Source of the DNA: Candidatus Woesearchaeota archaeon | GTDB lineage: Archaea; Nanobdellota; Nanobdellia; Pacearchaeales; GW2011-AR1 | Direction of reading: 5' to 3' | DNA length: 37,942 nt | Assembly (NCBI GenBank): GCA_964358615.1 | Contig: CAYHOV010000004.1 | Span: forward strand, 1-37,942 | Part shown: positions 12,184 to 37,690 of the stretch, piece by piece | How positions within the stretch are numbered: position 1 is the stretch's first letter | How the letters are laid out: the number at the start of each line of letters is the position of its first letter | Notes under the pieces: generated by a model | What the model was told of the DNA's origin: nothing | The model's input: only the letters and a program-made list of their open reading frames with translations | Database searches by the model: none | Program-made: the position numbers and the translations under genes

Positions 12184-13599
12184 ATGAAAGTATTATTTTT
12201 AAGCCCGCCCCAGGAAGATAAAATGTTTCCGTCGTTAGGAATTGCATATGTTGCGGCTATGCTGAACAAGAATGGCCATGAAGCAGCCATAAATGATGGA
12301 GCAGGAGTTTCTCAAGAATATATGCTTAAATCTGCTAAAAAAATAAATCCTCAAATTGTAGGCCTCACTATGAATACTACAAATAGATTTGAAGTTCTTG
12401 ATCTAGCTAAAAAAATTAAAGATCTATTGAAGATTCCAATTATTTTGGGAGGCCCACATCCTTCTTTATTGCCGGATCAGCTATTGAAAAACTATCCTTT
12501 TGTAGATTTCATCGTAAGAAATGAGGGAGAGTATTCTACTCTGGCATTGATTAATGCATTAGAACAAAAAAAAGATATTAAAAATGTTAAAGGAATCTCC
12601 TACAGAGAAAAAAATAAAATAATCCATAATCCTCCTGCAAAAATTATTACTAACTTGGATGTTCTTCCTTTTCCAGAATGGAAATTCTTTGATTTAAAAA
12701 AATATGGAAAACAAATAGAATATCCCCCAGAATATAGGGATTATCCGGTTGGAAGCATAATCAGCTCAAGAGGCTGTCCGTTCAGCTGCACATTTTGTTC
12801 TTCGAGCCAACTTTGGGGACATAAGATCAGGTATAGAAGCGCTAAAAATGTCGTTGAGGAAATAAAGATGCTCTATAATCTGGGAATAAGATTTTTTGTC
12901 TATAACGACGATAACTTTACTGCAGATAAAAAAAGAGCGATTGAAATATGCAAACTCATGATTAAAGAAGGACTGCATGAAAAAATGGGCTGGCAATGCC
13001 GAGCAGAAGTAAATATGATGAATGATGAAATACTTGAATTGATGAAAAAGGCCAACTGTAATATGATTGAGTTCGGAGTAGAAGATTGCAGCCCTGAAGG
13101 ATTAAACTGGTTTAGGAAAGGCCATATGCATGGCCAAGTCAAGAAAGCATTCGAGTTATGCCAAAAACATGGGATAAAAACAAAAAGTTATTTCATTATT
13201 GGAGGAGACCACGAAACAAAAGAAAATATCAAGAGAAAAAAAGAATATATCGAAGAATTAAATCCAGACATAACTACTGCTTCAATATTGCTGGCTTATC
13301 CGGGAACTGAGATCTATGAAATTGGAAAAAAGAAAGGATTGTGGGATGATGAAGTATGGCTTACTAAATGCATTGGCGAAAAATTTCACAGCTGCGCCCC
13401 GATATATACTGGGCCAAATGTGACTTACCAGGATTTATTTGCGGCTTCGGCCGATATAAACTATTGGTGGGGAAAGAGGAAAGGACAGTATACAATCAAA
13501 GATAATATAAAAATTGCGTTAGATATGCTCAGAAAAGGAGACATAAAGAAACTTATCACCATGAGTTTTGCAGTAATAAAACAAAACATAATCAAATAA
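12184..13599 (+). CDS. Cobalamin-binding (class B) radical SAM protein #1
   Basis: N-terminal B12-binding-type domain (PSLGIAYVAA, GGPHPS, EGE), then SRGCPFSCTFC (CxxxCxxC), DDNF, FGVE and YPGT. Confidence 0.92.
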   Translation: MKVLFLSPPQEDKMFPSLGIAYVAAMLNKNGHEAAINDGAGVSQEYMLKSAKKINPQIVGLTMNTTNRFEVLDLAKKIKDLLKIPIILGGPHPSLLPDQLLKNYPFVDFIVRNEGEYSTLALINALEQKKDIKNVKGISYREKNKIIHNPPAKIITNLDVLPFPEWKFFDLKKYGKQIEYPPEYRDYPVGSIISSRGCPFSCTFCSSSQLWGHKIRYRSAKNVVEEIKMLYNLGIRFFVYNDDNFTADKKRAIEICKLMIKEGLHEKMGWQCRAEVNMMNDEILELMKKANCNMIEFGVEDCSPEGLNWFRKGHMHGQVKKAFELCQKHGIKTKSYFIIGGDHETKENIKRKKEYIEELNPDITTASILLAYPGTEIYEIGKKKGLWDDEVWLTKCIGEKFHSCAPIYTGPNVTYQDLFAASADINYWWGKRKGQYTIKDNIKIALDMLRKGDIKKLITMSFAVIKQNIIK

Positions 13600-14555
13600 T
13601 GGAATTTACAATAATTCTTCCCACATATAATAATGAAAAAACAATAGAAGAATGTCTAGAAAGTATTTTTTCTCAAAGATACCCAAAAAAAGAATTTGAA
13701 GTGCTTTTTATCGACGGTGGAAGCAGCGATAGAACGCTTGAGATTGCAAAAAAATATCCAGTCAAGATATTAAAAAATGAAAAAAGAAATGAAGAGGCTG
13801 CGAGAATCCTTGGAATCAGAAAAGCTAAAGGAAAAATATTGGGTTTTGTTGATGCTGACAATGTTCTTGTCGGAAATGACTGGATAAAAAAGATGCTTGA
13901 ACCGTTTAAAGATAAAAATATTTCTTTTGCCGATACGCTTTATTTTGGTTACAGAAAAACTGACTCAATAAAAGTCAGATATCAGGCTTTAATCGGAGGG
14001 GATGATCCGATAATCATGTATCTGGGAAGACATTCAAGATGGTCGTATATCTCAGATAGTTGGACTGATTGTGATCATCAAGATAAAGATTATGGAAACT
14101 ATTTTTTATCAGAATTTCTAGACAAAAATAAAATACCTCCGATGGGCTCAAATGGTTTTCTTGTCAGGACAAACATTGCTAGAAGACTTGTCAAAGATTC
14201 TTTTATTCACTCTGATTTTATATTTGATTTAATAAACAAAGGATATAATTGTTTTGCAAAAGTCAAGACAAGTATTGTGCATAATCAACCAAAATTTTTT
14301 GCAAATAAAGCTCGGAGAATAAAAAGAAGAATAAATAATGAGATAAAAATAAATTATAACTATGGCCTCAGAAAATGGGACCTAATCAAGACAGGAATCT
14401 ATATCTGCATAATCTTGCCAGTTTTCTATGACGCACTAAGGGGCTTTATAAAAAAGCCTGACTTGGCTTGGATTTTTCATCCAATTGCTTGTTTTGGAGA
14501 GTTATTTCAATTTGCATACTATAATATAAAAAGCCAGTTTTTCTTAAAAGTGTAA
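13599..14555 (+). CDS. GT2 glycosyltransferase
   Basis: Motifs IILPTYN, IDGGSSDRT and FVDADN. Confidence 0.9.
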   Translation: MEFTIILPTYNNEKTIEECLESIFSQRYPKKEFEVLFIDGGSSDRTLEIAKKYPVKILKNEKRNEEAARILGIRKAKGKILGFVDADNVLVGNDWIKKMLEPFKDKNISFADTLYFGYRKTDSIKVRYQALIGGDDPIIMYLGRHSRWSYISDSWTDCDHQDKDYGNYFLSEFLDKNKIPPMGSNGFLVRTNIARRLVKDSFIHSDFIFDLINKGYNCFAKVKTSIVHNQPKFFANKARRIKRRINNEIKINYNYGLRKWDLIKTGIYICIILPVFYDALRGFIKKPDLAWIFHPIACFGELFQFAYYNIKSQFFLKV

Positions 14556-14556
14556 T

Positions 14557-15078
14557 ATGGTAAAAAAACTTAATCTGGGAAGCGGTACAGATCACAAACA
14601 AGGATGGGTTAATCTAGATCATAATCGTCGCTATAAAGCAGAAGTTTATCATAATCTTGATAAGTTTCCGTATCCTTTCAAGAATGAAGAATTTGATTAT
14701 ATTTATTGTTCACATGTACTTGAACATGTAGATGATTTGTTTAAAACACTCAAAGAATTATTAAGAATCATCAAGAAAGATGGAATAATCCATCTAAGAG
14801 TTCCTCATTTTTCAAATGGGACGGGATATAATGACTTGGGCCATAAAAGATTTTTTGGGTGGTTTACATTTGATCAAATGGTGATTGAAGATTATTATCA
14901 AAAAAATATAAATTTTAAGATAATCTCGAAAAGATTCAACTTCCTGTCGGAGAATCATAAAATAATTAATTTTATTTTCAGCTGGATATTCAACATCCTG
15001 CCAAAAAGATTTTATGAAAGATTTTTATGCTGGATTTTTCCGGTTGGGGAAATTGAGATATTCTTAAAAAAGAACTAA
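14557..15078 (+). CDS. Short class I SAM-dependent methyltransferase
   Basis: Motifs KLNLGSG, GWVNLD, FPYPF..EEFD, SHVLEH and VPHF. Confidence 0.85.
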   Translation: MVKKLNLGSGTDHKQGWVNLDHNRRYKAEVYHNLDKFPYPFKNEEFDYIYCSHVLEHVDDLFKTLKELLRIIKKDGIIHLRVPHFSNGTGYNDLGHKRFFGWFTFDQMVIEDYYQKNINFKIISKRFNFLSENHKIINFIFSWIFNILPKRFYERFLCWIFPVGEIEIFLKKN

Positions 15079-16778
15079 TTAGGAATAATCATACGATACG
15101 GGTCTATTGGCATACCTGTGATATTTTCTGGCCTTCCAAAAACCCAACTACAATTGACTCTTGAAGCGTTTATAACGGGATATGAATTAAATTTATAGAT
15201 GATAGCCATTGGCCGATTATCTCTAAAAAATACTTTTATAGGAACAAGAGATTCGTTATGTCTCGCCGGATAATCAAACATGTATGGTGGAGTAAATGCG
15301 GGTTCCCAAGGATGTAAAATCATATAATCTGGTTTTATCCTAACAAGTTTGCATTCAAATTCTGTCTCGTTGAAAATAGTTTTGTAACTTGTGGCAGTCT
15401 TTTGGCCTTCAGCAGTCAGCGCGCCAGTCACTTGTTCTGCTAACTCTGTACCAACAAAGAAATCATAGGTTCGTCGATGAGAATAATAACTATTCTGCAC
15501 AATAGAAGCACCAATTATTTTTGAATTTTCCGGAGTATTATATCTTATCCAGAGACCCGTATCCATAACTTCTTTATAGCTGTCTAATTTTACTTTAATC
15601 AACTGATCTGCATGATTCAATTGCTGATATCCTACAAATCCAAGAATAACAAAAATAAGAGTTATTCCAATAAATTTATGATAAGCTTTGGTAAACTCTG
15701 CTATTTTCTCGAGACCAAGTGAAGCAAAGATAAAAATTGGAGGCATCCAAAGAAGTATCCATCTATCGCTTCCACTTTTCATCACAAAAACAAAATATAT
15801 CACTTGGAAAAATAGCCAGACCATCAAAAAAACATATCTATTCGAGGATTTATCTTTTTGTTTAATAAAAAGATCGAACCCTACAAGCAGATTAAAAATA
15901 GAATAGGCCATCCCTGCTAAAAACAAAATCGTCAGAGGCCAACCAATAAACTCGGGAATATAGCTAAACAAAAACCAGGCAGGCTTATCGAAAGTTATTG
16001 TCGCTTTTGTAGAGTATACTGCTGCTGCAGGAAACCAGGAGCCGATGGTCATTTTGTTGAAAACAAAAAATGGAATTAAACAAATTATGCCGATTACTCC
16101 GGCGATCCAACTTGTTTTATCCAAGAAGAATTTATGTTTTTTAATTAAGATAATATACAAGATTATAGAAATTGTTAAGAATGCTGTCGGAAATCTTGTC
16201 AAAAATCCCAAAACTCCAAATATAATCAAAAAATAAAATCCTTTTGGCTTTTCATTTTTTTCATAGTACTCCCAAAAATAGTAGACAGAAATAAGTGCGA
16301 ACATCATCGCAGGAATATCTGTCATGAATCTAAGGCCATAAAATTGAATTACCCAATAAATGCTCGTCAAATAACCTGCAATCAATCCAACTTTTTTATT
16401 AAACAAACTCGAAACGAGAAGATATGTAAATAGGACCAAAAGAATTGAGGGAATAATCTCGGTTGCAAATCTCATCACTGACTCGGGAATGTTAAAATAG
16501 ATAAACGGAACCCAAACTAAAGACATCAAAGGCGGACGCATCGAAAGGAAGTGGCCCCACCATTCAGGAGTCTCAGAAGAGGGCAATGCAAATTCTTTTG
16601 CAAGAGCCAGGTAATCTCCTTCATCCCACCAGGTCGGCTGATTATAAGTAATAGAAAAATAATACAATCTTATTATAACTGTAAAAACCATCAAAAGCAA
16701 AAAGAAAAAATTTAAAGGATCCTTGAGCCAGATTTTAATCTTTTCTTTTCTTTCTTCAATATTCTCCGGATTATCCAT
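15075..16778 (-). CDS. GT-C fold membrane glycosyltransferase (ArnT/PMT-like)
   Basis: WWDEGDY after TM1, plus RPPL, MTDIP and RF motifs. About 11-12 TM segments and a C-terminal extracytoplasmic domain with several N-X-S/T sequons. Confidence 0.85.
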   Translation of the reverse strand: MDNPENIEERKEKIKIWLKDPLNFFFLLLMVFTVIIRLYYFSITYNQPTWWDEGDYLALAKEFALPSSETPEWWGHFLSMRPPLMSLVWVPFIYFNIPESVMRFATEIIPSILLVLFTYLLVSSLFNKKVGLIAGYLTSIYWVIQFYGLRFMTDIPAMMFALISVYYFWEYYEKNEKPKGFYFLIIFGVLGFLTRFPTAFLTISIILYIILIKKHKFFLDKTSWIAGVIGIICLIPFFVFNKMTIGSWFPAAAVYSTKATITFDKPAWFLFSYIPEFIGWPLTILFLAGMAYSIFNLLVGFDLFIKQKDKSSNRYVFLMVWLFFQVIYFVFVMKSGSDRWILLWMPPIFIFASLGLEKIAEFTKAYHKFIGITLIFVILGFVGYQQLNHADQLIKVKLDSYKEVMDTGLWIRYNTPENSKIIGASIVQNSYYSHRRTYDFFVGTELAEQVTGALTAEGQKTATSYKTIFNETEFECKLVRIKPDYMILHPWEPAFTPPYMFDYPARHNESLVPIKVFFRDNRPMAIIYKFNSYPVINASRVNCSWVFGRPENITGMPIDPYRMIIPN

Positions 16779-16828: not shown

Positions 16829-17566
16829 ATGGAAAAAGAAAATATTCTAATGAAGGATATTTACAAGAAAAAAGTAACAAAAAATGTATTCAGATATAAA
16901 TGGATATATGAAAATTTTTTAAAAGGAGTCCACGAAAAGAAAATTCTTGAAATCGGCGTAGGCGTCGGAGGGATCATCCAATTCTTAAAAAAAGATAATG
17001 AAGTCATCGGATCAGAAATATCAGACTCTGCAATAAATATCAATAAAGAACTTGGAATAAAAACAATAAAAATAGACCTAGACAATGGCAAGTTTCCGTT
17101 CAAGGACAAATCTTTTGACATCATCATCTTTATAGGAACGATAGAGCATCTGAATAATCCCCAAAACGCAATCAATGAAATAAAAAGACTAATAAGAGAC
17201 GGAGGTAGAATCTTAATAAGCATCCCTAATCCGCTTACAGGCCATTATCAGATATACCCGGGATTATATACTTATAAATATTTTACAGAATATCTAAAAG
17301 TAAATAATTTTAAGGTAGTCTCTTTCAAAAAATATGGCATAAGGCCGCCTCTCTATGATATATTGATGAAAAGAAGATCATTCAATAAAACAGTGAACAA
17401 TCAAACAGAAAATATGGCTCTGGGAAAATTTGTTTACAGACTCTCAAATGGTATCTTTAAATTAAAACCAAAAAGATTTGGATGGAGCTGGATTTTTGAA
17501 GTCCGTTATCTCGGCGATAACAAAAAATATGAAGAATTTATAAAAGAATTCAGTTCTGTATATTAG
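16829..17566 (+). CDS. Class I SAM-dependent methyltransferase
   Basis: Motifs ILEIGVGVG, FPFKDKSFD, IEHL..P and GGRILISIPN. Confidence 0.88.
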   Translation: MEKENILMKDIYKKKVTKNVFRYKWIYENFLKGVHEKKILEIGVGVGGIIQFLKKDNEVIGSEISDSAININKELGIKTIKIDLDNGKFPFKDKSFDIIIFIGTIEHLNNPQNAINEIKRLIRDGGRILISIPNPLTGHYQIYPGLYTYKYFTEYLKVNNFKVVSFKKYGIRPPLYDILMKRRSFNKTVNNQTENMALGKFVYRLSNGIFKLKPKRFGWSWIFEVRYLGDNKKYEEFIKEFSSVY

Positions 17567-17567: not shown

Positions 17568-19055
17568 ATGAAACCAAAAATATTATTAATAAATCCTTCT
17601 TTAACGGGATTGTTCAGCGCAGGCATCGGTACTGTAAAAGTTCCTCTGGGGCTTGCATATATTGCAGCATATCTTGAAAAATATGGCTATGAAGTAAAGA
17701 TAATCGATTGCGTGGCCAATTATGAAAATGTAAAACACATAAAAAATGACATATATAGAATCGGACTTTCGGAGGATAGACTCGCCCAATCAATCAAAGA
17801 ATATAATCCTCAAATCGTCGGTATAAGCTGCAGTTTCACGATCTATGAAGAAGACAGTTTTAGGATTGCAAAAATAGTAAAAGAAAATTCTGATGCTCTT
17901 GTCGTCGTCGGGGGGGCTCATTCTTCTGCGAATCCCGAATCGGCATTAAAATGCAAAGATATAGACTTAGCAGTAATCGGCGAAGGAGAATTAACTTTTC
18001 TTGAAATCATAAAAAATTATAAAAATTATAAAAAAATAGATGGCATTGCATTTAGAACAAAGAATGGAGTAAAGAAAAACCATGCACATAAATTTATTAA
18101 GGATCTTGATGAAATACCTTTTCCTGCAAGACATCTTCTGCCGATGGAAAAATATCTAAAACATCCTCAAAATTCTATGGCAAATATGAGGGGTCCTACA
18201 ACAGAGATAATCTCTAGCAGGGGATGTCCTTTCACTTGCATATTCTGCTCAATATGCAGTGTCTGGGGCAGGAAATGGAGAGCAAGAAGCGCTAAAAATG
18301 TCGTTGACGAATTAGAACAACTGCAGAAAAATTATGGAATAAGAGAGTTTAGATTTTTCGACGATAATATCTCCTGGAACAAAAAAAGAATGAGCGAAAT
18401 ATGCGATGAAATAATAAAAAGAAAATTAGATATCAGATGGGATACTCCTAATGGGGTAGCGATTGCGACGCTGGATGAAAATATTTTAAGAAAAATGAAA
18501 CAGGCGGGATATTATAAAATCATTATGGGAATTGAGTCTGGAAGTGAAGAGACATTAAGATTTATGAGGAAACCGGTAGGATTGGAACATGCAAGAAAAA
18601 TAATAAAAATATGCAACAAATTAGGAATATGGACTTGGTCAACTTTTGTTATCGGCTTTCCAAATGAAACCCGAGAAGAGATCCAAAAGACGATAGATTT
18701 CGCTAAAAAATCTGGGTTAAACTTTGTAACATTTTACATTGCTCAACCCTATCCTGGAACAGAAATGTATGAAATCTATAGAAAAGAAGGATTGTTAAAA
18801 AAAGGGATCAAAAAAACAAGTACGGTTACGCACACAGAATATGATACTAATTATTTCAAAGCAGAAGAACTAAGAGAAATACAAAAAAAAGCTTATTCTG
18901 AATTCATAAAATATCGACTCATATCTTATCTGAATCCGATAAAATTGTATAATGAATTTTTAAACAGGATAAGAAGTTTTGAAGATTTTTTTTATGTTAT
19001 CCGAATGGGCCTCAATCTTATAGGAAAAGAATACAGCCCGATTTATAAAAAGTAG
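17568..19055 (+). CDS. Cobalamin-binding (class B) radical SAM protein #2
   Basis: Motifs PLGLAYIAA, GGAH, GEGE, SRGCPFTCIFC, DDN, GIESG and PYPGT. Confidence 0.92.
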   Translation: MKPKILLINPSLTGLFSAGIGTVKVPLGLAYIAAYLEKYGYEVKIIDCVANYENVKHIKNDIYRIGLSEDRLAQSIKEYNPQIVGISCSFTIYEEDSFRIAKIVKENSDALVVVGGAHSSANPESALKCKDIDLAVIGEGELTFLEIIKNYKNYKKIDGIAFRTKNGVKKNHAHKFIKDLDEIPFPARHLLPMEKYLKHPQNSMANMRGPTTEIISSRGCPFTCIFCSICSVWGRKWRARSAKNVVDELEQLQKNYGIREFRFFDDNISWNKKRMSEICDEIIKRKLDIRWDTPNGVAIATLDENILRKMKQAGYYKIIMGIESGSEETLRFMRKPVGLEHARKIIKICNKLGIWTWSTFVIGFPNETREEIQKTIDFAKKSGLNFVTFYIAQPYPGTEMYEIYRKEGLLKKGIKKTSTVTHTEYDTNYFKAEELREIQKKAYSEFIKYRLISYLNPIKLYNEFLNRIRSFEDFFYVIRMGLNLIGKEYSPIYKK

Positions 19056-24327: not shown

Positions 24328-24328
24328 C

Positions 24329-24843: not shown

Positions 24844-24887
24844 ATACTTGAATATCTGCTTTTTTACGGTTGTCAGTTCTCGCTAGA

Positions 24888-27498: not shown

Positions 27499-27572
27499 AA
27501 GACAAAATTGAAATTCTAGTTTTTAAATACTATTGTTAAAATTGTTAGACAACGCGATAATCTTTAAAATTA

Positions 27573-28553: not shown

Positions 28554-28665
28554 AAAATTCCATTTTCTTTGCACTTATAAACATTTAGATGTTTTATTAT
28601 ATATTTTTAAGTATAGTATTGTAAAAGTAGTGTTTAATGCTATAAATCTTTAAATATGATGTTTA

Positions 28666-29625: not shown

Positions 29626-29626
29626 A

Positions 29627-30172
29627 ATGAACCGTGGTCTTTTTCTAGACAGGGACGGTGTTATTTGTCAAGAAAGAAATTTATTTTATGGAGGAACGCC
29701 GGTGACTCGAGCAGAAGATCTTGAATTTTTTCCACGCACTGAAGAAGCTTTTCAGCGTATGGCTCGGTTGGATTTTAAATTAGTAATTGTCACGAATCAG
29801 TCGGCAATCGGTCGAGGCGAACTCAGCAGAGAAGAATTTGAACGGATGAATGAAAAAATAAATCAGATGTTAGGAAAATATGGGAGAAGATTTGATGGGA
29901 TCTATGTCTGCCCGCATGTTCCTGAAGAAAACTGCGATTGCAGAAAACCAAAAACAGGAATGTTACTTAGAGCAGAAAGAGAACTTGAAATAAGTCTGCG
30001 AGATTCTATAGTAATCGGCGACAAAACTTCGGATATTAAAATGGGTATCGATGCTGGATGCAGAACCGGATTGGTAAAAACAGGTTATGGTGGGCGGGAT
30101 AAACTTTGCAAAGTAGAACCAGATTTTATTTCAGATGATCTTTATTCTGCTTTGACGGAGATTGGAAAATGA
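29627..30172 (+). CDS. gmhB: D-glycero-D-manno-heptose 1,7-bisphosphate phosphatase (HAD IIIA)
   Basis: Motifs FLDRDGVI, VTNQS, CPH....CDCRKPKTGM and IGDKTSD. Confidence 0.9.
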   Translation: MNRGLFLDRDGVICQERNLFYGGTPVTRAEDLEFFPRTEEAFQRMARLDFKLVIVTNQSAIGRGELSREEFERMNEKINQMLGKYGRRFDGIYVCPHVPEENCDCRKPKTGMLLRAERELEISLRDSIVIGDKTSDIKMGIDAGCRTGLVKTGYGGRDKLCKVEPDFISDDLYSALTEIGK

Positions 30173-32235: not shown

Positions 32236-32337
32236 AATATTTTTTATTTAACTTAAAATTCTCATAAAGAAATTGCCTAAAAAATTCTAAGAATACCGAA
32301 GAGAAAGGTATTTAAACAACGAGACTTGAAAAATAAA

Positions 32338-33123
32338 ATGATAAAAAGAATGTTTAGTCTTTTTGTTCCATGCTATAATGAAGAAAAATGCATTGGAAAG
32401 AATGTTGTAAAAATCTACGAGGTCTTAAAAAATTATCAAAAGAAAAATAAAAATTTTAAATTTGAGATCATAGTCGTCAATGATTGTTCAACAGATAGGA
32501 CCAAGGAAATTGTAGATAAGGTTTCTAAAGAAATAAAGGAAATAAAAGCAATACATTATTCTGGAGATAAACCTACAAGAAGAGAAAATCTTATACAGAG
32601 TTTTAAATATGCTAAAGGAGATATTGTTGGTTTTACTGATGCTGACCTTTCTACAGATATTACAGATCTTCCTCGTTTATATAATGAAGTAGATGATGAC
32701 AATACTATTGTTATTGGAGATAGATATCATCATGAAAGCAAAGTTCAAAGAAGTATAAAGAGATGGGTAATAAGTAAAACTCTTAACTATTCTACAAGAA
32801 TACTTTTTTTTGATTGGACACGTCCGTTTAAATTCACCAGCGGCAGTTGGGATCATTTTTGCGGATTCAAAGCATTCACAAAAAAAACAATACTTAGACT
32901 ATTAGAGTATACTGGGGTCGGCAATGAGCAAAGAAGCATGTGGTGGGATGCTGAAATGTTAATCTATGCTGAAAAACTAGGATATAAAATAAAAAGAATT
33001 CCTGTGACCTGGGTAGAGGGAAAAGAAACTAAATTAAAACCTCGAAGAGAAATAAATATAATTCTTTATATGATTAAACTTATGATAAGAATGAAATGGA
33101 TGAAGTCAACAAAGCTTGGTTAG
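32338..33123 (+). CDS. GT2 glycosyltransferase (polyprenol-phosphate glycosyltransferase-like)
   Basis: Motifs VPCYNEE, VNDCSTD, FTDADLS, D..CGFKAF and WWDAE. Start 32338 was chosen from the TATA at 32309-32318. Confidence 0.9.
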   Translation: MIKRMFSLFVPCYNEEKCIGKNVVKIYEVLKNYQKKNKNFKFEIIVVNDCSTDRTKEIVDKVSKEIKEIKAIHYSGDKPTRRENLIQSFKYAKGDIVGFTDADLSTDITDLPRLYNEVDDDNTIVIGDRYHHESKVQRSIKRWVISKTLNYSTRILFFDWTRPFKFTSGSWDHFCGFKAFTKKTILRLLEYTGVGNEQRSMWWDAEMLIYAEKLGYKIKRIPVTWVEGKETKLKPRREINIILYMIKLMIRMKWMKSTKLG

Positions 33124-33665
33124 GTGGAGATCTTAATTTTTATTTTAAATATAAAAGAAAAATTATAGAGAGAAAGATAAAGGGTAAATGTTTAAATGTA
33201 GGTTGCGGGGGCCATATTATTCCTGGAGCAGTCAATATCGACGAGAATGCAACAAATCTCCCTTATAAAGATAATTCTTTTGATACAGTGATACTCTCGG
33301 ATGTAATAGAACATATAAAAGATTGGGAAAAGGCTCTAGATGAAGCGATACGCGTCTCAAAAAATAAAGTGATAATAACTGTTCCTGCATATATGTGGCT
33401 ATGGTCCAACTATGACAAAATGCTCGGACACTATCGAAGATATGAAGAAAAAGATATAGATAGGTTTTTAAATAAATATCCGGATGTTAAATATACTGTG
33501 AGTTATCTTTTTGGACCAACTCTGCCATTATTGTGGTTCAGGAAGTTTGGCAGCGGAAAAACTCCAAAACTTCCGGGATTCATAGACGATTTACTCTATG
33601 CAGTATCTCATCTAAAAATGCCTTTTGGTTCGACGATGATGATTGAAATTACAAAAAACAAATGA
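33096..33665 (+). CDS. Class I SAM-dependent methyltransferase
   Basis: Motifs LNVGCG, LPYKDNSFD, DVIEH and TVPA...LWS.YD...GHYRRY. Confidence 0.88.
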   Translation: MDEVNKAWLGGDLNFYFKYKRKIIERKIKGKCLNVGCGGHIIPGAVNIDENATNLPYKDNSFDTVILSDVIEHIKDWEKALDEAIRVSKNKVIITVPAYMWLWSNYDKMLGHYRRYEEKDIDRFLNKYPDVKYTVSYLFGPTLPLLWFRKFGSGKTPKLPGFIDDLLYAVSHLKMPFGSTMMIEITKNK

Positions 33666-34498
33666 TAAACTTAAAATTTTTAAGAAAAAGATTAGGGCAA
33701 GTAAGATACGTTAAAAATCCGATGCAAATCTGGAGATTTTTCTTTTCTAAAGTGAAATCTATAGAAATTGCTATAACCTATGCATGTAATTTTAAATGTC
33801 CAGGTTGTTATGCAGAAGATTTGAAAACGACAAAACCAACAATGCTTTCAAAAGAAATGGTATTGGGATTTATAAAAAAATATAAACCTATGCATGTAAA
33901 TATCACGGGGGGAGAACCTCTTTTACACCCACAAATTTATGAAATAATAAGAGAAATTCCAAAAAGTGTCGTTGTCAGTATCGTCACTAATGGTAGCCTT
34001 TTGAATGAAGAAAAAATTAAAAAATTAAAAAAAGCAGGATTAAATACAATACAAATAAGCTTCGGTAAAAATTATCCCTGGGAAAATCTTGAAAAAGCAA
34101 AGATTGCAAAAAAATATGGGTTGAATGTCTGTTTAAGCGTCACAAATACTAAAAAAAATAAAGAATATATTTTAGCGGCGATAAGGGCTGCAGAAAAAAA
34201 TGATTATCATGTCCTATGGAATCTCCCAAGTTCTTTTATAATGAAAAATTTTGATAGCGAGACATATTTCAAATATCGAAATCATCCGCGAGTCCGGGAA
34301 GATAATATGTTCTGGGCTGGAAGAAATGTATGTCCTGCAGGAAGACAAAAAATCTATATCACAGCAAAAGGAGAACTGATGCCCTGTGATAGATGGCATA
34401 AATCCTATCCAGATCTAGAATCAATGAGAAAAGATTTTCAAGGGAAAAAAGTGTGGTGCAGTCGGCTTGGAGATATTCATCTTAAAAACAATCAATAA
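33662..34498 (+). CDS. Radical SAM protein with twitch-type C-terminal motif
   Basis: Motifs CNFKCPGCY, TGGEPLL, TNG and CPAG...YITAKGELMPC. Confidence 0.9.
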   Translation: MINLKFLRKRLGQVRYVKNPMQIWRFFFSKVKSIEIAITYACNFKCPGCYAEDLKTTKPTMLSKEMVLGFIKKYKPMHVNITGGEPLLHPQIYEIIREIPKSVVVSIVTNGSLLNEEKIKKLKKAGLNTIQISFGKNYPWENLEKAKIAKKYGLNVCLSVTNTKKNKEYILAAIRAAEKNDYHVLWNLPSSFIMKNFDSETYFKYRNHPRVREDNMFWAGRNVCPAGRQKIYITAKGELMPCDRWHKSYPDLESMRKDFQGKKVWCSRLGDIHLKNNQ

Positions 34499-34572: not shown

Positions 34573-35424
34573 TTAAAGCCTGGTAGTCTTATTAAAAAAA
34601 ACTCTTCTTATAGCTCCATAATAATAGCCAAAATATTTTACAGTATAGAATATTGGTAAAAAAAGTATAAATGGGAGATATGGGTCTGTTGCAAAATGTT
34701 TTATGGATTTGAGAATTGCATATAAAAAAAAGAAAGGAAGAGATAAAAAAATAAGAATTGGTTTTTTATAAGAAGAGCCAATCCAAACTCCCTGGGCAAA
34801 AGTCTCGCTTGCTGATTCTGGATTATAGTGAGCCATCTCTGTATCCACAACTTTTGCATATACTGGTGCTTTTTTAAAAAGAGATTGGTCGTCGGCATAG
34901 CCATCTTTTGGGTCAAATCCGCCGGATTTTTCATAGAGACTCCTTGCAGTCAGTGAAGCATTTTTTTTACCTCCTTCGATGAGTTTTCTAAAATCTCTTG
35001 AACCCCATGCCCTCGCCCAGATTTTATCAAAATTTGCAACTTTTTCCCTTGCATGAACTGTTCTCAAAGCCTCACCTTTTATTATTGGTTCTGCTAAATC
35101 TTTTATATAATCCTTACCATAGATATGGTCTGACGCCCAAAAAAGTAAAATTTCTCCTTTTGCATGTTTAAAACCTAGATTCCAGGCTGCTCCTGGGCCA
35201 GAATGCTTTTGTTGGAGGAGTTTAACTTTTGGAGCATATTTTCTGACAATTTCTGCGGTTTTATCCTGGCTTTCATCGTCCACTATAAATATCTCAATAG
35301 GCGTATAACTTTGTTTCAAAAGAGAGTCTAAGCAAATCCCAATATGTTTTTCTTCATTATATGCTGGAAGAATCACTGAAACAAGGAGATTACCTTTTAT
35401 TTTTTTAGACGTTAAAACCACCAT
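34573..35424 (-). CDS. GT2 glycosyltransferase
   Basis: Motifs VSVILPAYNEE, VDDES.D.T and GGFD...YADD. The DxD position is degenerate (WASD). Confidence 0.85.
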   Translation of the reverse strand: MVVLTSKKIKGNLLVSVILPAYNEEKHIGICLDSLLKQSYTPIEIFIVDDESQDKTAEIVRKYAPKVKLLQQKHSGPGAAWNLGFKHAKGEILLFWASDHIYGKDYIKDLAEPIIKGEALRTVHAREKVANFDKIWARAWGSRDFRKLIEGGKKNASLTARSLYEKSGGFDPKDGYADDQSLFKKAPVYAKVVDTEMAHYNPESASETFAQGVWIGSSYKKPILIFLSLPFFFLYAILKSIKHFATDPYLPFILFLPIFYTVKYFGYYYGAIRRVFFNKTTRL

Positions 35425-36215
35425 GGGGCAAATAAAAAGAAGATATTTAGATATTTATACGTGGGAATGTTTCCAATTTTTTGATATATCTCTATAAAAT
35501 TTTTAATAAAAAATATTGGAATTATTATTGCCATCAAAATCAAATAGTATTGTGAAACATCAAACAATATCGAGAAAAAAAGCAATGAAAATGGAGCAAA
35601 TGGTCTCAGCATCTCGGCAGTAAATACTTTTATCTTTGAAGTAATTCCTCCTCTAGAAATTCTTTTTCCAGATTCATAAACTTCACCGACTCTTTTCTTG
35701 ATCAAATCGTATCTTTTTTCATTTATGAAACATTCGTAAACTTTTAATTTTGCAAAATTATCCAAGAAAAAGAAAAAACCCGCAATCAAGCCCAGGTAAA
35801 AATAAATAATATTCCCGTCAGTGCGATATAAACCGACTCCAAGAGCTAAAAGCAAAAGACTTCGGTTTATCCACGAAAAAAAGGTATCCAGATAAGAGCC
35901 TCCGATAGTGGTATTTTTTGTCGCTCGAGCAATCTGACCGTCGACGTAATCCAATAAAATAGCAAGATGATAAATCAGGATGCCGGCCAATAAATATCTG
36001 TATCCTCCAAGACTCATCACAAATATTCCAATAAGCCCGATTATTCCCCAAAGAAAAGATATTTGATTTGGAGTAAATGGAAGGAATCTTGCAAAAAAAT
36101 AAGAGACATATGGAGAGATATAACCAAATGGATAGATATTAATTGACCAGTTGCTCCGATCTTCACCACCTTTTACAATTTCTTGAAAAGTTATATTTTT
36201 ACTCATATACATCAT
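35412..36215 (-). CDS. CDP-alcohol phosphotransferase family membrane protein (variant motif)
   Basis: Motifs TPNQIS and DYVDGQIARA-x6-GGSYLDTFFS. The last Asp of the DxxDGxxAR..GxxxDxxxD signature is replaced by Ser. Confidence 0.88.
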   Translation of the reverse strand: MMYMSKNITFQEIVKGGEDRSNWSINIYPFGYISPYVSYFFARFLPFTPNQISFLWGIIGLIGIFVMSLGGYRYLLAGILIYHLAILLDYVDGQIARATKNTTIGGSYLDTFFSWINRSLLLLALGVGLYRTDGNIIYFYLGLIAGFFFFLDNFAKLKVYECFINEKRYDLIKKRVGEVYESGKRISRGGITSKIKVFTAEMLRPFAPFSLLFFSILFDVSQYYLILMAIIIPIFFIKNFIEIYQKIGNIPTYKYLNIFFLFAPWWF

Positions 36216-37690
36216 CTCATGTATTTTTCTTTATAAATCTTGCTTAGCTCTCCGAACCTTTTTTCACCAGCTTCGTCAAATCTCTCGGCAGTTTGAATCT
36301 GTGGCCACATTTCCCTCGGCAATCGCACATAGAGCGGAAATGTTCTTTGTAATCCCCTTATCTCGCTAGAAGATAGTTGGGGCATAGTAAGTGTCGCATC
36401 AGAACGATAATCTCCGGCTGTTCTTTCTCTCGCGACATATCCGTTTTCGACGCACATTCCCCAAAGTTTTGTTCCACGATAGGGAGAAAAGATATTGATG
36501 ATAGGATTGTCTGGTTCTAAAACTCGATTTAACTCGACAGTATCAAAGAACAAATCTCGGGTTTCTGTAGGGAATCCGACAATATTATTCGCACAAATTC
36601 TTATTCCTGATTTTTTTGCAGTCCTAAATGCTTCGACTAATCTTTCATTTGAAACTTTTCTTCCCAAAACACTTCTTCGAAATTGATCGTTTCCATGCTC
36701 AATGCCTATACTCAAACCTTCACAGCCGACTTCTCTTAGCTTCAATATTTTTTCAAGATCTACTGTCTCTGGTCTTGTCTCTATCCAAAAAGGAAGCCTT
36801 ACATCGCTATATCCTTCAACAAACTCACTAAATCTTTCCTGGCTCATATGAAGAAAATTTTCTGCTACAAGATAAAGATATTGCATCCCAAACTTTTGTT
36901 TTTTATCTTTTAATTCTGCCATAAATTTTGCAATGCTCCTTTCTCGAGGGTATCTTCCGATTCCTTTATACATATCCTGAAGTTCTGCATTGCAACAAAA
37001 AGTGCATCGATAGGTGCATCCCCGGGTCAATTCTATTGGTCCACTTACCCAAATCTTTCCGCCCATGGGTTTGAAAAATCTTTCTCTGTCATAAATATCC
37101 CAATCTTGGTCAGGAAGATCGTCTAATTTTACGAGAGGCCTTAGAGGATTTGCTGTCAGTGTTTGGCCTTTTCTTACTACTAAATTCTGAACGTCTGAAA
37201 AATCTTTTCCAGAATCTAATCTTGATGCGAGCTCGACAATCGCTTCTTCTCCTTCTCCTCTGCAAACCATATCTGTCGGACATTCTCTCATTATCTCTTC
37301 TGCAGCCATTGTTGCATGTATTCCTCCAACAATTTTTGGAGTTTTAATGTCTCGGATAGACTCTAGCATCTCTCGAGCAATGGAGTAAGTAGGTTCTACG
37401 ACCGATAGGGCGATAAGATCTGGATTGAACCGGTTTATTTGTTCTCTAAAATCTCCTGTAAGTGAACCTGGTTTTTCTCTTATGCCTAAATCTGCGAGAT
37501 TTGTAGATCTTATCTGCAAGGATTTTACTCTAGCGTCGTCGCCTGTCTCTTCTCTTGTCCTGTAAAAAGTTGTATCAAATAATTCTACTTTATGACCTTC
37601 TCTTTTCAAACAAGCAGAAAGCAAAGATACTCCTATCGGTATAAGATTATCCATAAAACTGTTAACATAACTAAGTAATACTCGAGTCAT
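36212..37690 (-). CDS. Cobalamin-binding (class B) radical SAM protein #4
   Basis: Motifs PIGVSLLSA, GGIHAT, RGEGE, TRGCTYRCTFC, GIEHG and PYRGT. Confidence 0.92.
   Translation of the reverse strand: MTRVLLSYVNSFMDNLIPIGVSLLSACLKREGHKVELFDTTFYRTREETGDDARVKSLQIRSTNLADLGIREKPGSLTGDFREQINRFNPDLIALSVVEPTYSIAREMLESIRDIKTPKIVGGIHATMAAEEIMRECPTDMVCRGEGEEAIVELASRLDSGKDFSDVQNLVVRKGQTLTANPLRPLVKLDDLPDQDWDIYDRERFFKPMGGKIWVSGPIELTRGCTYRCTFCCNAELQDMYKGIGRYPRERSIAKFMAELKDKKQKFGMQYLYLVAENFLHMSQERFSEFVEGYSDVRLPFWIETRPETVDLEKILKLREVGCEGLSIGIEHGNDQFRRSVLGRKVSNERLVEAFRTAKKSGIRICANNIVGFPTETRDLFFDTVELNRVLEPDNPIINIFSPYRGTKLWGMCVENGYVARERTAGDYRSDATLTMPQLSSSEIRGLQRTFPLYVRLPREMWPQIQTAERFDEAGEKRFGELSKIYKEKYMR

Follow-up and report, generated by a model that had tools for sequence, protein, structure and literature searches.

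What do six radical SAM enzymes do among the protein-glycosylation genes of a DPANN archaeon? The window, a contig of 37,942 nucleotides (C4), belongs to an 851-kb, 70% complete assembly of an organism of Pacearchaeota/Nanoarchaeota type, which also includes the contigs C7 and C45; gene calls are plain ORFs. We find it rather probable that a locus for surface-glycan assembly, 45 kb or more in length, takes up the window and extends beyond it, with three tailoring modules within a glycan core. This reading draws on domain content, motifs, synteny, gene fusions and co-occurrence, and from these we infer substrates, methylation, cobalamin use and acceptor. In the literature that we searched, loci of this kind are not described.

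Gene content of the locus

The AglB/STT3 oligosaccharyltransferase (909 aa; 5180..7909, +; PF02516 50.9 bits, cut-off 24.5) has WWDYG at residue 610 and 12 hydrophobic segments, and its orthologues stand at the head of the same locus in genomes L001, G153, G254 and L133. It is followed by a GT4-family polyprenyl-phosphate sugar-phosphate transferase (AglH/WecA/MraY-like; 8184..9200, +; PF00953 106 bits, nine hydrophobic segments), likely the priming enzyme, and by a Wzx/Polysacc_synt-type flippase (9197..10447, +; PF01943 49.6 bits, twelve hydrophobic segments).

Eight of the genome's 11 glycosyltransferase (GT)-like ORFs lie in the window. GT2a (10431..11156, +; PF00535 93 bits) resembles polyprenyl-phosphate sugar synthases, with weak NCBIfam matches to PpgS, AglJ and ArnC-type enzymes that are all under cut-off. 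The other GT2 genes are GT2b (11143..12141, +; PF00535, PF13632), GT2c (13599..14555, +; PF00535 103.4 bits), GT2d (19070..19948, -; PF13641, PF00535), GT2e (32326..33123, +; PF00535 88.3 bits) and GT2f (34573..35424, -; PF00535 110.3 bits). There are also a GT1/GT4-type enzyme (19945..21057, -; PF00534 95.7 bits; Agl16-like at 90 bits against a cut-off of 575) and a GT25-family enzyme (24917..25783, +; PF01755 28 bits, cut-off 24). A PMT_2 family GT-C glycosyltransferase (ArnT/PMT-like; 15075..16778, -; PF13231 59.5 bits, at least seven hydrophobic segments) would take a polyprenyl-phosphate sugar as donor at the outer membrane face.

Downstream of aglB, the AglH-like gene and the flippase, radical SAM genes lie amid the GTs; here coordinates and Pfam domains agree with the initial annotation, which had also counted four B12 radical SAMs. 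All four exceed the cut-offs of both PF02310 (32.1 bits) and PF04055 (29.5 bits): rSAM1 (471 aa; 12184..13599, +; 72.7 and 87.6 bits, respectively), rSAM2 (495 aa; 17568..19055, +; 73.4 and 84.1), rSAM3 (443 aa; 22996..24327, +; 62.9 and 94.4) and rSAM4 (492 aa; 36212..37690, -; 65.8 and 84.9). In rSAM1, CPFSCTFC is at residue 198, and the stop codon overlaps the start of GT2c. The two further radical SAMs, named as SPASM and twitch-like, are borne out by Pfam and by C-terminal cysteines. The SPASM protein (346 aa; 21108..22148, +; PF04055 60.1 bits, SPASM PF13186 50.4 bits) matches the BtrN auxiliary-cluster domain with its C-terminus (4m7t, 46.8 bits, residues 262-335). The small rSAM278 (278 aa; 33662..34498, +; Radical_SAM 71.5 bits) has a twitch/SPASM-like three-Cys auxiliary domain: Pfam gives it no SPASM match of its own, while 40 of the 50 sequences in its alignment, which includes the window protein, do match, and C224, C242 and C266 are invariant in all 50. 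CxxxCxxC is present in all six window proteins and in three B12 radical SAMs on C7 and C45.

The window range from 12184 to 37690 holds four class I methyltransferases (MTs), not the five first reported: sMT1 (173 aa; 14557..15078, +; PF08241 39.6 bits), with motif I (LNLGSG) at the extreme N-terminus; MT2 (245 aa; 16829..17566, +; PF08241 57.4 bits), 1 nt upstream of rSAM2; MT3 (251 aa; 22145..22900, -; PF13649 47.6 bits; VIEIGAGAG at residue 53); and sMT4 (189 aa; 33096..33665, +; PF08241 42.4 bits). A SET methyltransferase-type domain lies outside this range (2448..2849). Five of the six radical SAM genes do have an MT as immediate or next-but-one neighbor, as had been noted; the exception is rSAM4.

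The sugar-nucleotide tailoring block (25852..29625, mixed strands) comprises two GDP-fucose-synthase-like SDRs (25852-26775, +; 27573-28574, -), a xylose-isomerase-like TIM protein (26776-27498, -) and a 4,6-dehydratase-like SDR (28666-29625, +). Next to it are a GmhB-like heptose 1,7-bisphosphate phosphatase (29627..30172, +; NF006506 152 bits, cut-off 178; TIGR00213 126.6 bits, cut-off 149.6) and an HddC-CBS-HddA fusion (30169..32235, +), assigned by Pfam domains and with HddA (197 bits) and HddC (144 bits) both under cut-off; its roles would be heptose-1-P guanylyltransferase and heptose-7-P kinase.

The B12-domain genes are not clustered by chance: of seven PF02310 matches in the 851-kb assembly, four fall within 25.5 kb, or 3% of it (P ~ 3e-5, binomial estimate), and the remaining three lie in two other glycan or phosphonate clusters on C7 and C45. 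From the AglH-like gene at 8184 to the end of sMT1 at 15078, stops and starts overlap or are separated by gaps of at most 43 nt. Spacing is equally tight in MT2-rSAM2, in GT2e-sMT4-rSAM278 and in rSAM4-CDPOH-GT2f, where CDPOH is a CDP-alcohol phosphotransferase-family gene.

Conservation of the linkage

The linkage of radical SAMs to glycan genes is conserved in independent metagenome-assembled genomes (MAGs) and one single-cell genome, across several families. In the Nanoarchaeota MAG L001 the locus is colinear from AglB to the SPASM gene (36-72% identity), and in the Pacearchaeota MAG L133 the order is AglB-AglH-flippase-GTs-sMT1-GT2c-rSAM1-PMT_2. Orthologues of rSAM1 (69-75% identity) occur amid GT2, small MT and PMT_2 genes in L001 and L131-L134, those of sMT1 (65-73%) in L001 and G153, and G153 also keeps the GT2e-sMT4-rSAM278 triad (61-69%). 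The PMT_2 gene adjoins or is one gene from the rSAM2 orthologue in all five loci that have an orthologue of at least 51% identity. The single-cell genome L127 keeps CDPOH, GT2f, HddCA, GmhB, SDRs, GT25, rSAM3, MT3, SPASM, GT1, GT2d and PMT_2, its rSAM3 orthologue (68%) being flanked likewise by GT25/heptose and MT3/SPASM genes.

Seven of the eight PF02310 matches in G153 lie 8-36 kb from AglB, and six of the seven in G254 lie 10-40 kb from it. Among twelve genomes chosen by contiguity and B12 count, six have over-cut-off B12 matches within 45 kb of AglB (5/5, 5/6, 5/7, 3/6, 2/4 and 1/2). Linkage to AglB is not universal: the counts near AglB are 0/8 in G194, 0/13 in G051, 0-1/14 in G150, 0/5 in G045 and 0/3 in G024. 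The AglB-distant clusters of G194 and G024 both contain GT2, GT1 and Wzt_C genes, together with PMT_2, sulfatases and a carbamoyltransferase in G194 only and GDP-mannose dehydratases in G024 only.

We fetched 78 metagenome loci with an rSAM2-like gene and analyzed the 43 of at least 8 kb, leaving out 35 shorter ones. Within six genes of the rSAM2-like gene there is a GT in 28 of the 43, another B12 radical SAM in 18 and an MT in 16; BLAST seeds recognized no GT in the other 15. As a control, in one genome only (that of the window, outside C4, C7 and C45), 15 of 748 ORFs have a GT within six genes. Linkage to aglB, GTs and flippases thus recurs in many genomes, which does not refute the reading of the initial annotation.

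Possible reactions of the radical SAM enzymes

None of the window radical SAMs reaches the curated cut-off of a named NCBIfam family (lipid, tRNA, RiPP or cofactor), which likewise leaves the initial reading unrefuted. The best scores are 285 against 575 for the Sden_1168 family (the best match of rSAM2), 213 against 577.6 for HpnJ, 213 against 481 for BchE, 159 against 360 for the ladderane-lipid radical SAM, 47 against 450 for Tes and at most 63 against 251 for MiaB/RimO. The AlphaFold model of rSAM2 (pLDDT 91) has MgmA, TsrM, OxsB, AprD4 and TokK as closest folds. In P0030 and P0033-35, relatives of rSAM2, an MT is fused at the C-terminus. The model of rSAM278 (pLDDT 91.2) matches SuiB, BlsE, SkfB, MoaA and viperins (TM 0.56-0.64); only 12 representative clusters were found at E<=1e-30 among 1.84 billion proteins. 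With rSAM4 set apart, the substrates of these enzymes would most likely be sugars linked to a lipid or a nucleotide.

That the window enzymes methylate and use cobalamin is a prediction, and some of their closest named relatives are not methylases: by family score HpnJ and BchE, both described as non-methylases in PMC9204698, and among PDB sequence and fold matches AprD4. It is possible, if doubtful, that this is a glycan locus whose 'B12' radical SAMs are not cobalamin-dependent C-methylases and maybe use no cobalamin at all. Their sugar reactions would then be diol dehydration or deoxygenation (AprD4), ring contraction (HpnJ), oxidation or epimerization, and all methylations could come from the separate class I MTs. 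AprD4 (6fd2, 86-88 bits) is the best PDB sequence match of rSAM1 and rSAM2, and AprD4 and ArsL homologues, which do not bind cobalamin, fall in the same similarity network (PMC12931638). The AprD4 model and PDB match, however, cover the radical SAM core only (e.g., residues 187-389), whereas the N-terminal domains exceed the PF02310 cut-off with 57-75 bits and do align with BchE, Sden_1168 and MgmA-type models. The fit of the rSAM2 model to cobalamin-bound TsrM, OxsB and TokK is also about as good as its fit to AprD4 (TM 0.65-0.70).

Cobalamin supply speaks for the non-methylase alternative. The initial annotation had suggested scavenged cobalamin, and the search for uptake and adenosylation genes gave this no backing: neither BtuF nor a PduO-type adenosyltransferase turned up in the window's own 70%-complete assembly, and BtuC (FecCD) is absent in all five genomes, four of them 93-98% complete. 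The accompanying check of Fe-S assembly genes found SufBD in just one of the five genomes searched and not in the other four, which, like the missing cobalamin route, speaks against the reading that we favor.

The phosphonate cassette and its possible acceptor

C45, a 6-kb contig, abuts the right end of the window and encodes a PepM-nucleotidyltransferase, a phosphonopyruvate decarboxylase (TIGR03297 451 bits, cut-off 312.5), a 2-aminoethylphosphonate (AEP) transaminase (TIGR03301 359.9 bits, cut-off 360.8) and another B12 radical SAM. The transaminase gene is broken at a contig end, as is that of the PEP mutase (TIGR02320 312.5 bits, cut-off 319.55; motif EDKIFPKRNS). The C-terminal 74 codons of the transaminase (PhnW/AepZ) are in the window (37721..37942, -) and the remainder is on C45, split exactly at the contig break: the window tail corresponds to residues 803-873 and the C45 fragment to residues 509-803 of a fusion protein. 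The C4-C45 join is by protein alignment only, with no nucleotide overlap found between the ends.

That fusion, a 1059-aa radical SAM-AEP transaminase-MT protein met both as G230 L047 and as P0121, has an N-terminal domain 50% identical to rSAM4 (residues 3-491), and rSAM4 is 42-43% identical to phosphonopyruvate-decarboxylase-radical-SAM fusions (P0122, P0123). PepM, present in 21 of all 301 genomes, occurs in five of the six genomes with a full-length rSAM4 orthologue (at least 40% identity): no more than 9 kb away in the four relatives, and on the adjoining C45 here. Since orthologues of rSAM4 are fused to AEP transaminase and MT or to the decarboxylase, rSAM4 would tailor a phosphonate, its predicted substrate being the phosphonate head group and not a sugar. 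Fusions of Ppm to PF12804 or PF01467 nucleotidyltransferases, CMP-AEP, and the making of CMP-HEP by Fom1 are reported (PMC6697681), and cytidylyl-HEP is the substrate of Fom3 (cited in PMC9204698), a precedent that fits this cassette and suits cobalamin-dependent methylation better than the non-methylase alternative. The original proposal of radical-tailored sugars thus holds in part: glycan-gene linkage and the lack of a named-family fit support it, but at least rSAM4 and the C45 radical SAM are part of a PEP-mutase phosphonate cassette rather than of sugar C-methylation.

The final acceptor may be the N-glycan, another surface glycan or a lipid. CDPOH is a divergent CDP-alcohol phosphotransferase-family membrane protein (267 aa; 35412..36215, -; PF01066 33.2 bits, cut-off 22). 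Its motif, D89xxD92G93xxA96R97...G106xxxD110, lacks the fourth Asp of what we take to be the family signature, as do all four aligned orthologues. The family classically acts on lipid head groups, and the best NCBIfam match is archaetidylinositol phosphate synthase (38.7 bits, cut-off 180), so the phosphonate could go to lipid. We regard it as unlikely that the radical enzymes, in part or as a whole, and CDPOH act on lipids, either the dolichol carrier or host-scavenged membrane archaeols, with the cassette making a phosphonolipid (CMP-AEP plus lipid alcohol) and not a phosphonoglycan. GGGP synthase (PF01884) was not found in any of five genomes, which fits a lipid scavenger able to remodel its uptake, and rSAM278 has weak matches to GDGT-MAS (7tol, 34 bits) and Tes (46.6 bits, cut-off 450). 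The B12 radical SAMs GrsA/B and Gmm modify archaeal lipids, but just six Gmm homologues are given for DPANN, far below the copies seen here (PMC11214058). Against action on lipids, moreover, lipid-family scores are all far under cut-off (in a comparison without sequences of GrsA, GrsB and Gmm), there is translational coupling to GT2 genes, the neighbors of the radical SAM genes and CDPOH in many genomes are GTs, flippases, AglB and sugar-nucleotide enzymes, and the G230 cassette lies two genes past AglB and its GT1.

That the product is a secreted small molecule (an aminoglycoside-like or phosphonate antibiotic) instead of a surface glycoconjugate is highly improbable: the locus is framed by AglB, a polyprenyl-phosphate priming transferase, a Wzx-type flippase, a GT-C and at least eight GTs, this frame is conserved in relatives, a genome of about 1 Mb encodes little other metabolism, and the annotated neighbors include neither the epoxidase nor the CMP-hydrolase gene known from fosfomycin synthesis. 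Aminoglycoside and phosphonate antibiotic clusters nonetheless typically contain class B radical SAMs, SDRs, aminotransferases and PepM/Ppd, and PMC6697681 and PMC9204698 name Fom1-3 and FomC as genes for fosfomycin.

For the surface-glycan locus that we favor, gene families and gene order suggest that an AglH-like enzyme would prime dolichyl phosphate, GT2 and GT1 enzymes would extend the glycan, and the flippase would move it across the membrane for transfer by AglB to proteins, the PMT_2 GT-C probably using a dolichyl-phosphate sugar to add more residues on the cell exterior. A first module, sets of GT2, class I MT and B12 radical SAM (rSAM1; MT2 and rSAM2 beside the GT-C gene), may carry out radical modification of lipid- or nucleotide-linked sugars, most likely C-methylation alongside O- or N-methylation. 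The second, a GDP-heptose block (GmhB, HddC-HddA, three SDRs, GT25) flanked by rSAM3, MT3 and the SPASM radical SAM, would supply a modified heptose. The third would be the phosphonate cassette across the contig break: PEP mutase-nucleotidyltransferase fusion, phosphonopyruvate decarboxylase, AEP transaminase, a second nucleotidyltransferase, rSAM4, the C45 radical SAM and CDPOH. Its predicted product, 2-aminoethylphosphonate, may be activated as a CMP conjugate, modified by radical SAM by analogy with Fom3 on cytidylyl-hydroxyethylphosphonate, and then transferred to the glycan. With sugar-building enzymes, B12-type radical enzymes and a phosphonate pathway encoded next to its protein-glycosylation gene, this archaeon may well have a cell surface with unusual decorations, whose predicted chemistry is so far undescribed.

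Gene content of the locus and its radical SAM enzymes

The assembly comprises 851 kb on 63 contigs (70% complete, 1.8% contamination), and the window is one entire contig (C4) with a GC content of 32%–40% throughout. By plain ORF calling and Pfam searches, its left part encodes, in order, SecY, an EMC3/YidC-like insertase, a SET-domain protein, RNase H, aIF-2B, and a SpoIIM-like membrane protein. These genes are followed by AglB (5180–7909), an AglH-like priming enzyme of the GT4 family, and a flippase of Wzx type, and then by ∼28 kb of glycan genes that extend to the contig end. AglB matches PF02516 at 50.9 bits (cut-off 24.5) and carries WWDYG, an instance of the WWDxG motif, at residue 610; its score against the subfamily model TIGR04154 (94) lies below the cut-off of 450. 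The SpoIIM-like gene (4157–5011) lies directly 5′ of aglB, and the pair is kept in two related genomes, G153 and G254, at identities of 41% and 34%–36%.

All six radical SAM genes reported in the initial annotation are real and in place: rSAM#1 (12184–13599), rSAM#2 (17568–19055), rSAM#3 (22996–24327), rSAM#4 (36212–37690, reverse strand), a SPASM gene (21108–22148), and rSAM278 (33662–34498). Each carries CxxxCxxC. The first four combine this motif with an N-terminal B12-binding domain (PF02310, 62.9–73.4 bits; cut-off 32.1) and a radical SAM core (PF04055, 84–94 bits), as befits class B enzymes. The assignment of the other two as SPASM/twitch enzymes also stands. The gene at 21108 matches PF13186 at 50.4 bits (cut-off 21.5); rSAM278 has no Pfam SPASM match of its own, and its C-terminal C224, C242, and C266 are invariant in a 50-sequence alignment in which 40 sequences do match SPASM. 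The number of class I methyltransferases between these coordinates is, by our count, four (at 14557, 16829, 22145, and 33096; sMT1, MT2, MT3, and sMT4, respectively) rather than the five first annotated. Both of the shorter proteins (173 and 189 aa) are complete and have motif I near the N terminus, and the gap at 24327–24917 contains no ORF of at least 61 aa.

The window accounts for four of the seven B12-binding hits in the assembly, six of the 17 radical SAM hits, and eight of the 11 GT-like ORFs, a concentration beyond what chance would give. The remaining three B12 genes are on contigs C7 and C45. On C7, positions 96–10375 form a second small glycan cluster, in which two B12 radical SAMs and a small methyltransferase are accompanied by a GT2, an SDR, and a separate Polysacc_synt flippase (517 aa).

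Against the curated NCBIfam models, all six radical SAMs of the window stay below the cut-offs. The best matches are Sden_1168, HpnJ, and BchE, with scores between a third and a half of the required values. For Sden_1168 (NF038361, cut-off 575), the scores are 368.3 for the C45 radical SAM, 285.3 for rSAM#2, 142.7 for rSAM#3, 138.8 for rSAM#1, and 58.2 for rSAM#4. The best HpnJ score (TIGR03471) is 213.2 for rSAM#2 against 577.6, and the best BchE score (TIGR02026) is 212.8 for rSAM#1 against 481.35. The possibility that these enzymes belong to characterized lipid- or tRNA-modifying families, named at the outset as a finding that would refute a role in glycans, finds no support in these searches: Scores are at most 158.8 against 360 for the ladderane model TIGR04072, at most 146.5 against 650 for HpnR, 46.6 against 450 for Tes (NF045702), and at most 63.4 against 251 for MiaB/RimO/MtaB (TIGR00089). 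The lipid, tRNA, and RiPP families all score below Sden_1168, HpnJ, and BchE. The seven B12 paralogues share 21%–38% mutual identity, with rSAM#4 as the outlier.

The solved relatives nearest by sequence are AprD4, MgmA (9ccb), OxsB, TokK, and TsrM, and a predicted structure of rSAM#2 (pLDDT 91) superposes on the same five at TM 0.63–0.70, with CysS also matched. The rSAM278 model (pLDDT 91.2) resembles small twitch/SPASM enzymes, several of which have nucleotides or nucleotide-sugars as substrates (BlsE, MoaA, and viperins, at TM 0.56–0.64). BtrN, named as a precedent in the initial annotation, aligns with the gene at 21108 over the auxiliary domain only (46.8 bits, residues 262–335), and for the gene at 33662 it ranks 36th in the fold search, at TM 0.41. 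The fold searches with rSAM278 and rSAM#2 recover only twitch/SPASM and class B folds at a general level, with no resolution between functions. We also considered whether the methyltransferase fused in four database proteins (P0030 and P0033–P0035) corresponds to MT2. The two could not be matched up, the best window match being sMT1 in three of the four and MT2 in one, at 30%–49% identity over 45–147 residues.

Linkage to glycan genes across genomes

The closest named homologues come from Pacearchaeota, Nanoarchaeota, and Woesearchaeota, and from these names the organism is taken to be a DPANN archaeon. The initial annotation had made conserved linkage to aglB and GT genes a test of its reading; such linkage recurs in MAGs, in a single-cell genome, and in metagenome loci, and is not universal. 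A locus in a Nanoarchaeota MAG is colinear with the window from AglB through the SPASM gene. Orthologues of rSAM#1 with 69%–75% identity lie among GT2b, a small methyltransferase, GT2c, and the GT-C gene PMT_2 (15075–16778 in the window) in a Pacearchaeota MAG and three other records. In the single-cell genome, a block is kept that runs from the CDP-alcohol phosphotransferase gene through heptose genes, GT25, rSAM#3, MT3, and the SPASM gene to PMT_2, evidence that the arrangement is not an artefact of binning. In the near-closed genomes G153 and G254, the locus begins with SpoIIM, AglB, AglH, flippase, and GT2 and contains seven of eight and six of seven B12-domain genes, respectively.

Among 12 genomes chosen for contiguity and B12 count, six have at least half of their B12 genes no farther than 45 kb from the only AglB gene. 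In G204 this is certain for only one of six B12 genes, AglB being at a contig start, and the five other chosen genomes have few or no B12 genes near AglB. The AglB-distant clusters in G194 and G024 are ABC-transporter-type glycan loci with GT1, GT2, and Wzt_C; that of G194 additionally has PMT_2, sulfatases, and a carbamoyltransferase, and that of G024 has GDP-mannose dehydratases. We fetched 78 metagenome loci around rSAM#2-like genes and analyzed the 43 of at least 8 kb, in 28 of which a GT lies within six genes of the radical SAM. As a single-genome control, 15 of 748 ORFs in the rest of the assembly have a GT within that distance.

In the phylum sample, 190 of 301 genomes have a B12-domain hit (189 of 300 without the unpublished G244), and, as read from the table, about 68 of 300 (about a quarter) have at least five, with a maximum of 14. 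Orthologues of rSAM#2 with at least 50% identity occur in only three other genomes of the 300. The window is one example of a widespread but patchy habit.

Several loci beyond the closest relatives show further arrangements. In G194, a single 1433-aa frame (L037, 7712–12013) contains, by Pfam, three complete units of B12-binding domain and radical SAM; in G024, a 1004-aa frame (L040, 5746–8760) has two radical SAM stretches and one B12 stretch, also by Pfam; and in G051, a 2098-aa frame (L041, 3727–10023) gives four B12-domain hits. All three frames have the appearance of class B radical SAM enzymes fused in tandem within glycan loci. A Candidatus Falkowbacteria MAG, from a CPR bacterium, has four B12 radical SAM genes with methyltransferases, a GT2, and an epimerase within 14 kb (L002, 771–14267), and a Paceibacterota protein (P0066) is 51% identical to rSAM#2. 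The two cases suggest either exchange between CPR and DPANN or a parallel habit.

As to how the glycan might be built, the AglH-like enzyme would, from its family role, prime dolichyl phosphate; GT2 and GT1 enzymes would extend the glycan, the flippase would move it across the membrane, and AglB would transfer it to protein. Outside the cell, the GT-C enzyme would add extra residues, with dolichyl-phosphate sugars as donors; these would be supplied by small GT2 enzymes such as GT2a, which has a weak likeness to PpgS, AglJ, and ArnC-type enzymes. The GT-C gene PMT_2 adjoins, or is one gene from, an rSAM#2 orthologue (at least 51% identity) in five of five loci. Since this pairing is constant, it suggests, with the Arn pathway as an analogue of lipid-linked sugar tailoring, that rSAM#2 and MT2 may tailor a lipid-linked monosaccharide donor. 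HpnJ, which is described as acting on lipid-linked glucosamine (PMC9204698, available text), offers a second analogue.

A further block, at 25852–32235, carries GDP-heptose genes: Alongside a GmhB-like gene, it encodes three SDRs, a fusion that joins the three domains HddC, CBS, and HddA, and a TIM protein resembling xylose isomerase. A search of the 70%-complete assembly gave no GmhA. The single-cell locus additionally has an RmlC-like 3,5-epimerase and a GT9 heptosyltransferase domain. In Campylobacter capsules, a GDP-glycero-manno-heptose pathway is combined with heptose tailoring; the GmhB-like, HddC, and HddA domains and GDP-fucose-synthase-like SDRs of that pathway recur here, although all scores are below the equivalog cut-offs and HddC, CBS, and HddA are fused. 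We know of no heptose in a characterized archaeal N-glycan. The GDP-heptose genes are accompanied by those for rSAM#3, MT3, and the SPASM radical SAM, and these three enzymes may tailor the heptose. The TIM protein (26776–27498) scores 28.9 bits against CbiR, a cobamide-remodeling phosphodiesterase (cut-off 105), which is probably a family-level likeness only.

A phosphonate cassette beside rSAM#4

A search for PEP mutase (PepM) matched contig C45 of the same assembly and the middle of the G153 locus. C45 (5956 bp) carries a complete cassette of the 2-aminoethylphosphonate (AEP) type and abuts the right end of the window. It encodes a truncated PepM fused to NTP_transf_3 (312.5 against 319.55), with the Ppm motif EDKIFPKRNS at residue 96; the B12 radical SAM that best matches Sden_1168; a nucleotidyltransferase weakly matching the Sden_1164 family; a phosphonopyruvate decarboxylase (Ppd; 451.2 against 312.5); and the first 339 residues of an AEP transaminase (PhnW-AepZ; 359.9 against 360.8, truncated). 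The elements of the PEP mutase/Pnt pathway, namely PepM with EDKxxxxxNS, Ppd, and AEP transaminase, are thus on C45, outside the window. The transaminase C terminus, which completes the C45 fragment, is encoded by the last 222 nt of the window (37721–37942). Aligned to a full-length relative in G230, the C45 fragment corresponds to residues 509–803 and the window tail to residues 803–873, both at 52% identity. No nucleotide overlap between C4 and C45 was found; judging from the split transaminase sequence, C45 almost certainly continues the window.

The G230 relative is a 1059-aa fusion of a B12 radical SAM, an AEP transaminase (417.8 bits, above the cut-off), and a class I methyltransferase. 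Its radical SAM part is 50% identical to rSAM#4 over the whole length, and its gene lies between a CDP-alcohol phosphotransferase homologue and genes for nucleotidyltransferase, Ppd, and PepM, a few genes from AglB. Two more database proteins fuse phosphonopyruvate decarboxylase to an rSAM#4-like domain. Full-length rSAM#4 orthologues with at least 40% identity occur in six of 301 genomes, and PepM is present in five of these six compared with 21 of 301 overall; it is within 9 kb in four relatives with an rSAM#4 orthologue and on the adjoining contig in our genome. The context of a PepM-Ppd-cytidylyltransferase cassette is found for rSAM#4 and for the C45 radical SAM. For the latter type, PepM is alongside in three of five genomes with a relative of at least 39% identity (our own genome counted), the exceptions being G082 and G197. 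Having the same best family, rSAM#2 was considered as a further phosphonate enzyme. This was rejected, as its 52%–54% orthologues occur in G254 and G062 (93% and 97% complete), in which no PepM was found.

The G153 cassette is a hydroxyethylphosphonate (HEP) variant, with cytidylyltransferase-PepM, Ppd, Fe-ADH, and a radical SAM, and with a phosphotransferase and a PMT_2 gene nearby. The PEP mutase search found no phosphonate cassette in its congener G254, so the cassette is exchangeable. Comparing the two loci (C1:100–152 kb in G153, C1:41–87 kb in G254), the aglB-locus frame is common and the cassettes differ, the PepM/Fe-ADH set being in G153 only of the two; this is the pattern of O-antigen-like hypervariable loci.

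The CDP-alcohol phosphotransferase homologue of the window (35412–36215) matches PF01066 at 33.2 bits (cut-off 22). Of the signature of this family, which we take to be DxxDGxxAR...GxxxDxxxD, residues D, D, G, A, R, G, and D are conserved, and the fourth and last Asp is missing in all four aligned orthologues. The homologues beside phosphonate and radical SAM genes reach only 29–33 bits on PF01066 and may represent a distinct subfamily with CMP-phosphonates as substrates.

In the pathway we propose, PEP would be converted via phosphonopyruvate and phosphonoacetaldehyde to AEP, which would then be cytidylylated, CMP-AEP being a precedent (PMC6697681, as far as its available text goes). A radical SAM would next modify the phosphonate, by analogy with Fom3, a class B radical SAM that methylates cytidylyl-HEP (cited in PMC9204698, available part). 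Transfer to a glycan or lipid acceptor would fall to the divergent CDP-alcohol phosphotransferase. The initial reading of the locus as one for radical tailoring of N-glycans is upheld in part: The linkage to glycan genes is conserved, and the reading is sharpened by the phosphonate cassette, to which rSAM#4 belongs.

Relation to known systems and implications

The characterized Agl pathways of Haloferax, Methanococcus, and Sulfolobus comprise AglB, a priming transferase, GT2 and GT1 enzymes, a flippase, a class I methyltransferase (AglP), and an outside-acting GT-C (AglS). The window has the corresponding AglB, priming transferase, GTs, flippase, methyltransferase, and GT-C. In contrast to these pathways, it also has six radical SAMs, and related genomes have up to 14 B12-domain hits. 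To our knowledge, no characterized Agl pathway includes a radical SAM. This agrees with the initial annotation and with the literature, where titles and the opening lines of abstracts gave no description of such enzymes in archaeal N-glycosylation loci. At the same level, papers that join DPANN and radical SAM mainly concern lipids. In its available text, a DPANN protein-family survey (PMC8204110) lacks the topics radical, B12, cobalamin, glycosyl, phosphonate, and S-layer except for two unrelated occurrences; a 2026 review of B12 radical SAMs (PMC12931638) has, in the text available, no mention of glycans, polysaccharides, phosphonates, or archaea. A phosphonate inventory (PMC8942020) puts the share of archaeal RefSeq genomes with Ppm at 1.6% and, in the part available, mentions radical SAM only for a Campylobacter cluster.

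The cassette resembles the early fosfomycin pathway (Fom1 cytidylyltransferase-PepM, Fom2 Ppd, FomC Fe-ADH, and Fom3) in bringing together a PepM-nucleotidyltransferase fusion, Ppd, and a B12 radical SAM, and G153 shares the Fe-ADH as well. A further point of likeness is that, in relatives, the radical SAM and enzymes of the pathway form single fusion proteins. Our genome differs in having an AEP transaminase instead of Fe-ADH, hence the AEP branch. Other differences are the presence of a second radical SAM, the CDP-alcohol phosphotransferase and GTs that take the place of the release and epoxidation steps, and the setting in an archaeal aglB locus; the likeness to Fom3 is one of gene context. 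With bacterial Pnt clusters, in which PntC makes CMP-AEP, the cassette has in common the Ppm-PF12804 fusion, Ppd, AEP transaminase, EDKxxxxxNS, and a surface-glycan context. The host here, however, is a DPANN archaeon, B12 radical SAMs and methyltransferases are added and even fused to pathway enzymes, and the transferase candidate is of the CDP-alcohol phosphotransferase family, whereas the available text of PMC6697681, our source for Pnt clusters, names LicD-like phosphotransferases.

Among sugar-acting enzymes of class B type, HpnJ performs ring contraction of hopanoid-linked glucosamine, and GenK and AprD4 tailor aminoglycoside sugars. HpnJ is among the best families for rSAM#1–3 and AprD4 is the best PDB sequence match, but scores are far below the cut-offs (HpnJ, 177–213 against 577.6; AprD4, 90–120 against 500), and pathways and hosts are different. 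For SD1168, whose family best matches rSAM#2 and the C45 radical SAM, the physiological substrate is unknown (PMC9204698, available text). HpnJ, BchE, and AprD4 are non-methylases (PMC9204698 and PMC12931638, available parts), and AprD4 is a cobalamin-free member of the class (PMC12931638, likewise). It is from sequence that we infer probable cobalamin use and methylation by the radical SAMs of the window.

Scavenging of cobalamin, which the initial annotation considered probable, remains an assumption. Regarding B12 uptake, BtuF (PF01497) and PduO (PF01923) were not found in the 70%-complete assembly, and FecCD/BtuC was found in none of five genomes. Regarding Fe-S assembly, SufBD was found in one of the five only; the SufB/SufD core domain was not found in our genome, G153, G254, or G197, each of which has seven to nine B12-domain genes. 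GGGP synthase was found in none of the five genomes.

Tentatively, and with somewhat less than even confidence, we propose that an entire class of ultra-small DPANN archaea, and apparently some CPR bacteria, devote an outsized share of genomes of ∼1 Mb to cobalamin-type and SPASM radical SAMs in surface-glycan assembly. Their N-glycans would then carry sugars that are C-methylated or rearranged, together with methylated aminoethylphosphonate. This would be a new kind of glycan chemistry, exchanged in cassette form among close relatives, and the cells, as symbionts, would rely on their hosts for cobalamin.

Class B radical SAMs are a very large family with mostly unknown functions, and a conserved and abundant role in glycan and phosphonate tailoring would open new functional territory. 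Testable candidates are rSAM#4, together with the AEP transaminase and nucleotidyltransferase that are fused to it or lie next to it, and MT2 with rSAM#2 beside the GT-C enzyme. Phosphonate-decorated archaeal glycans, if real, would be an added source for environmental phosphonate pools. Having lost most of their metabolism, DPANN archaea still invest in expensive Fe-S, SAM, and probably B12 chemistry at the cell surface, where host attachment and virus attack are decided, and the locus points to a hidden reliance on host-derived cobalamin.
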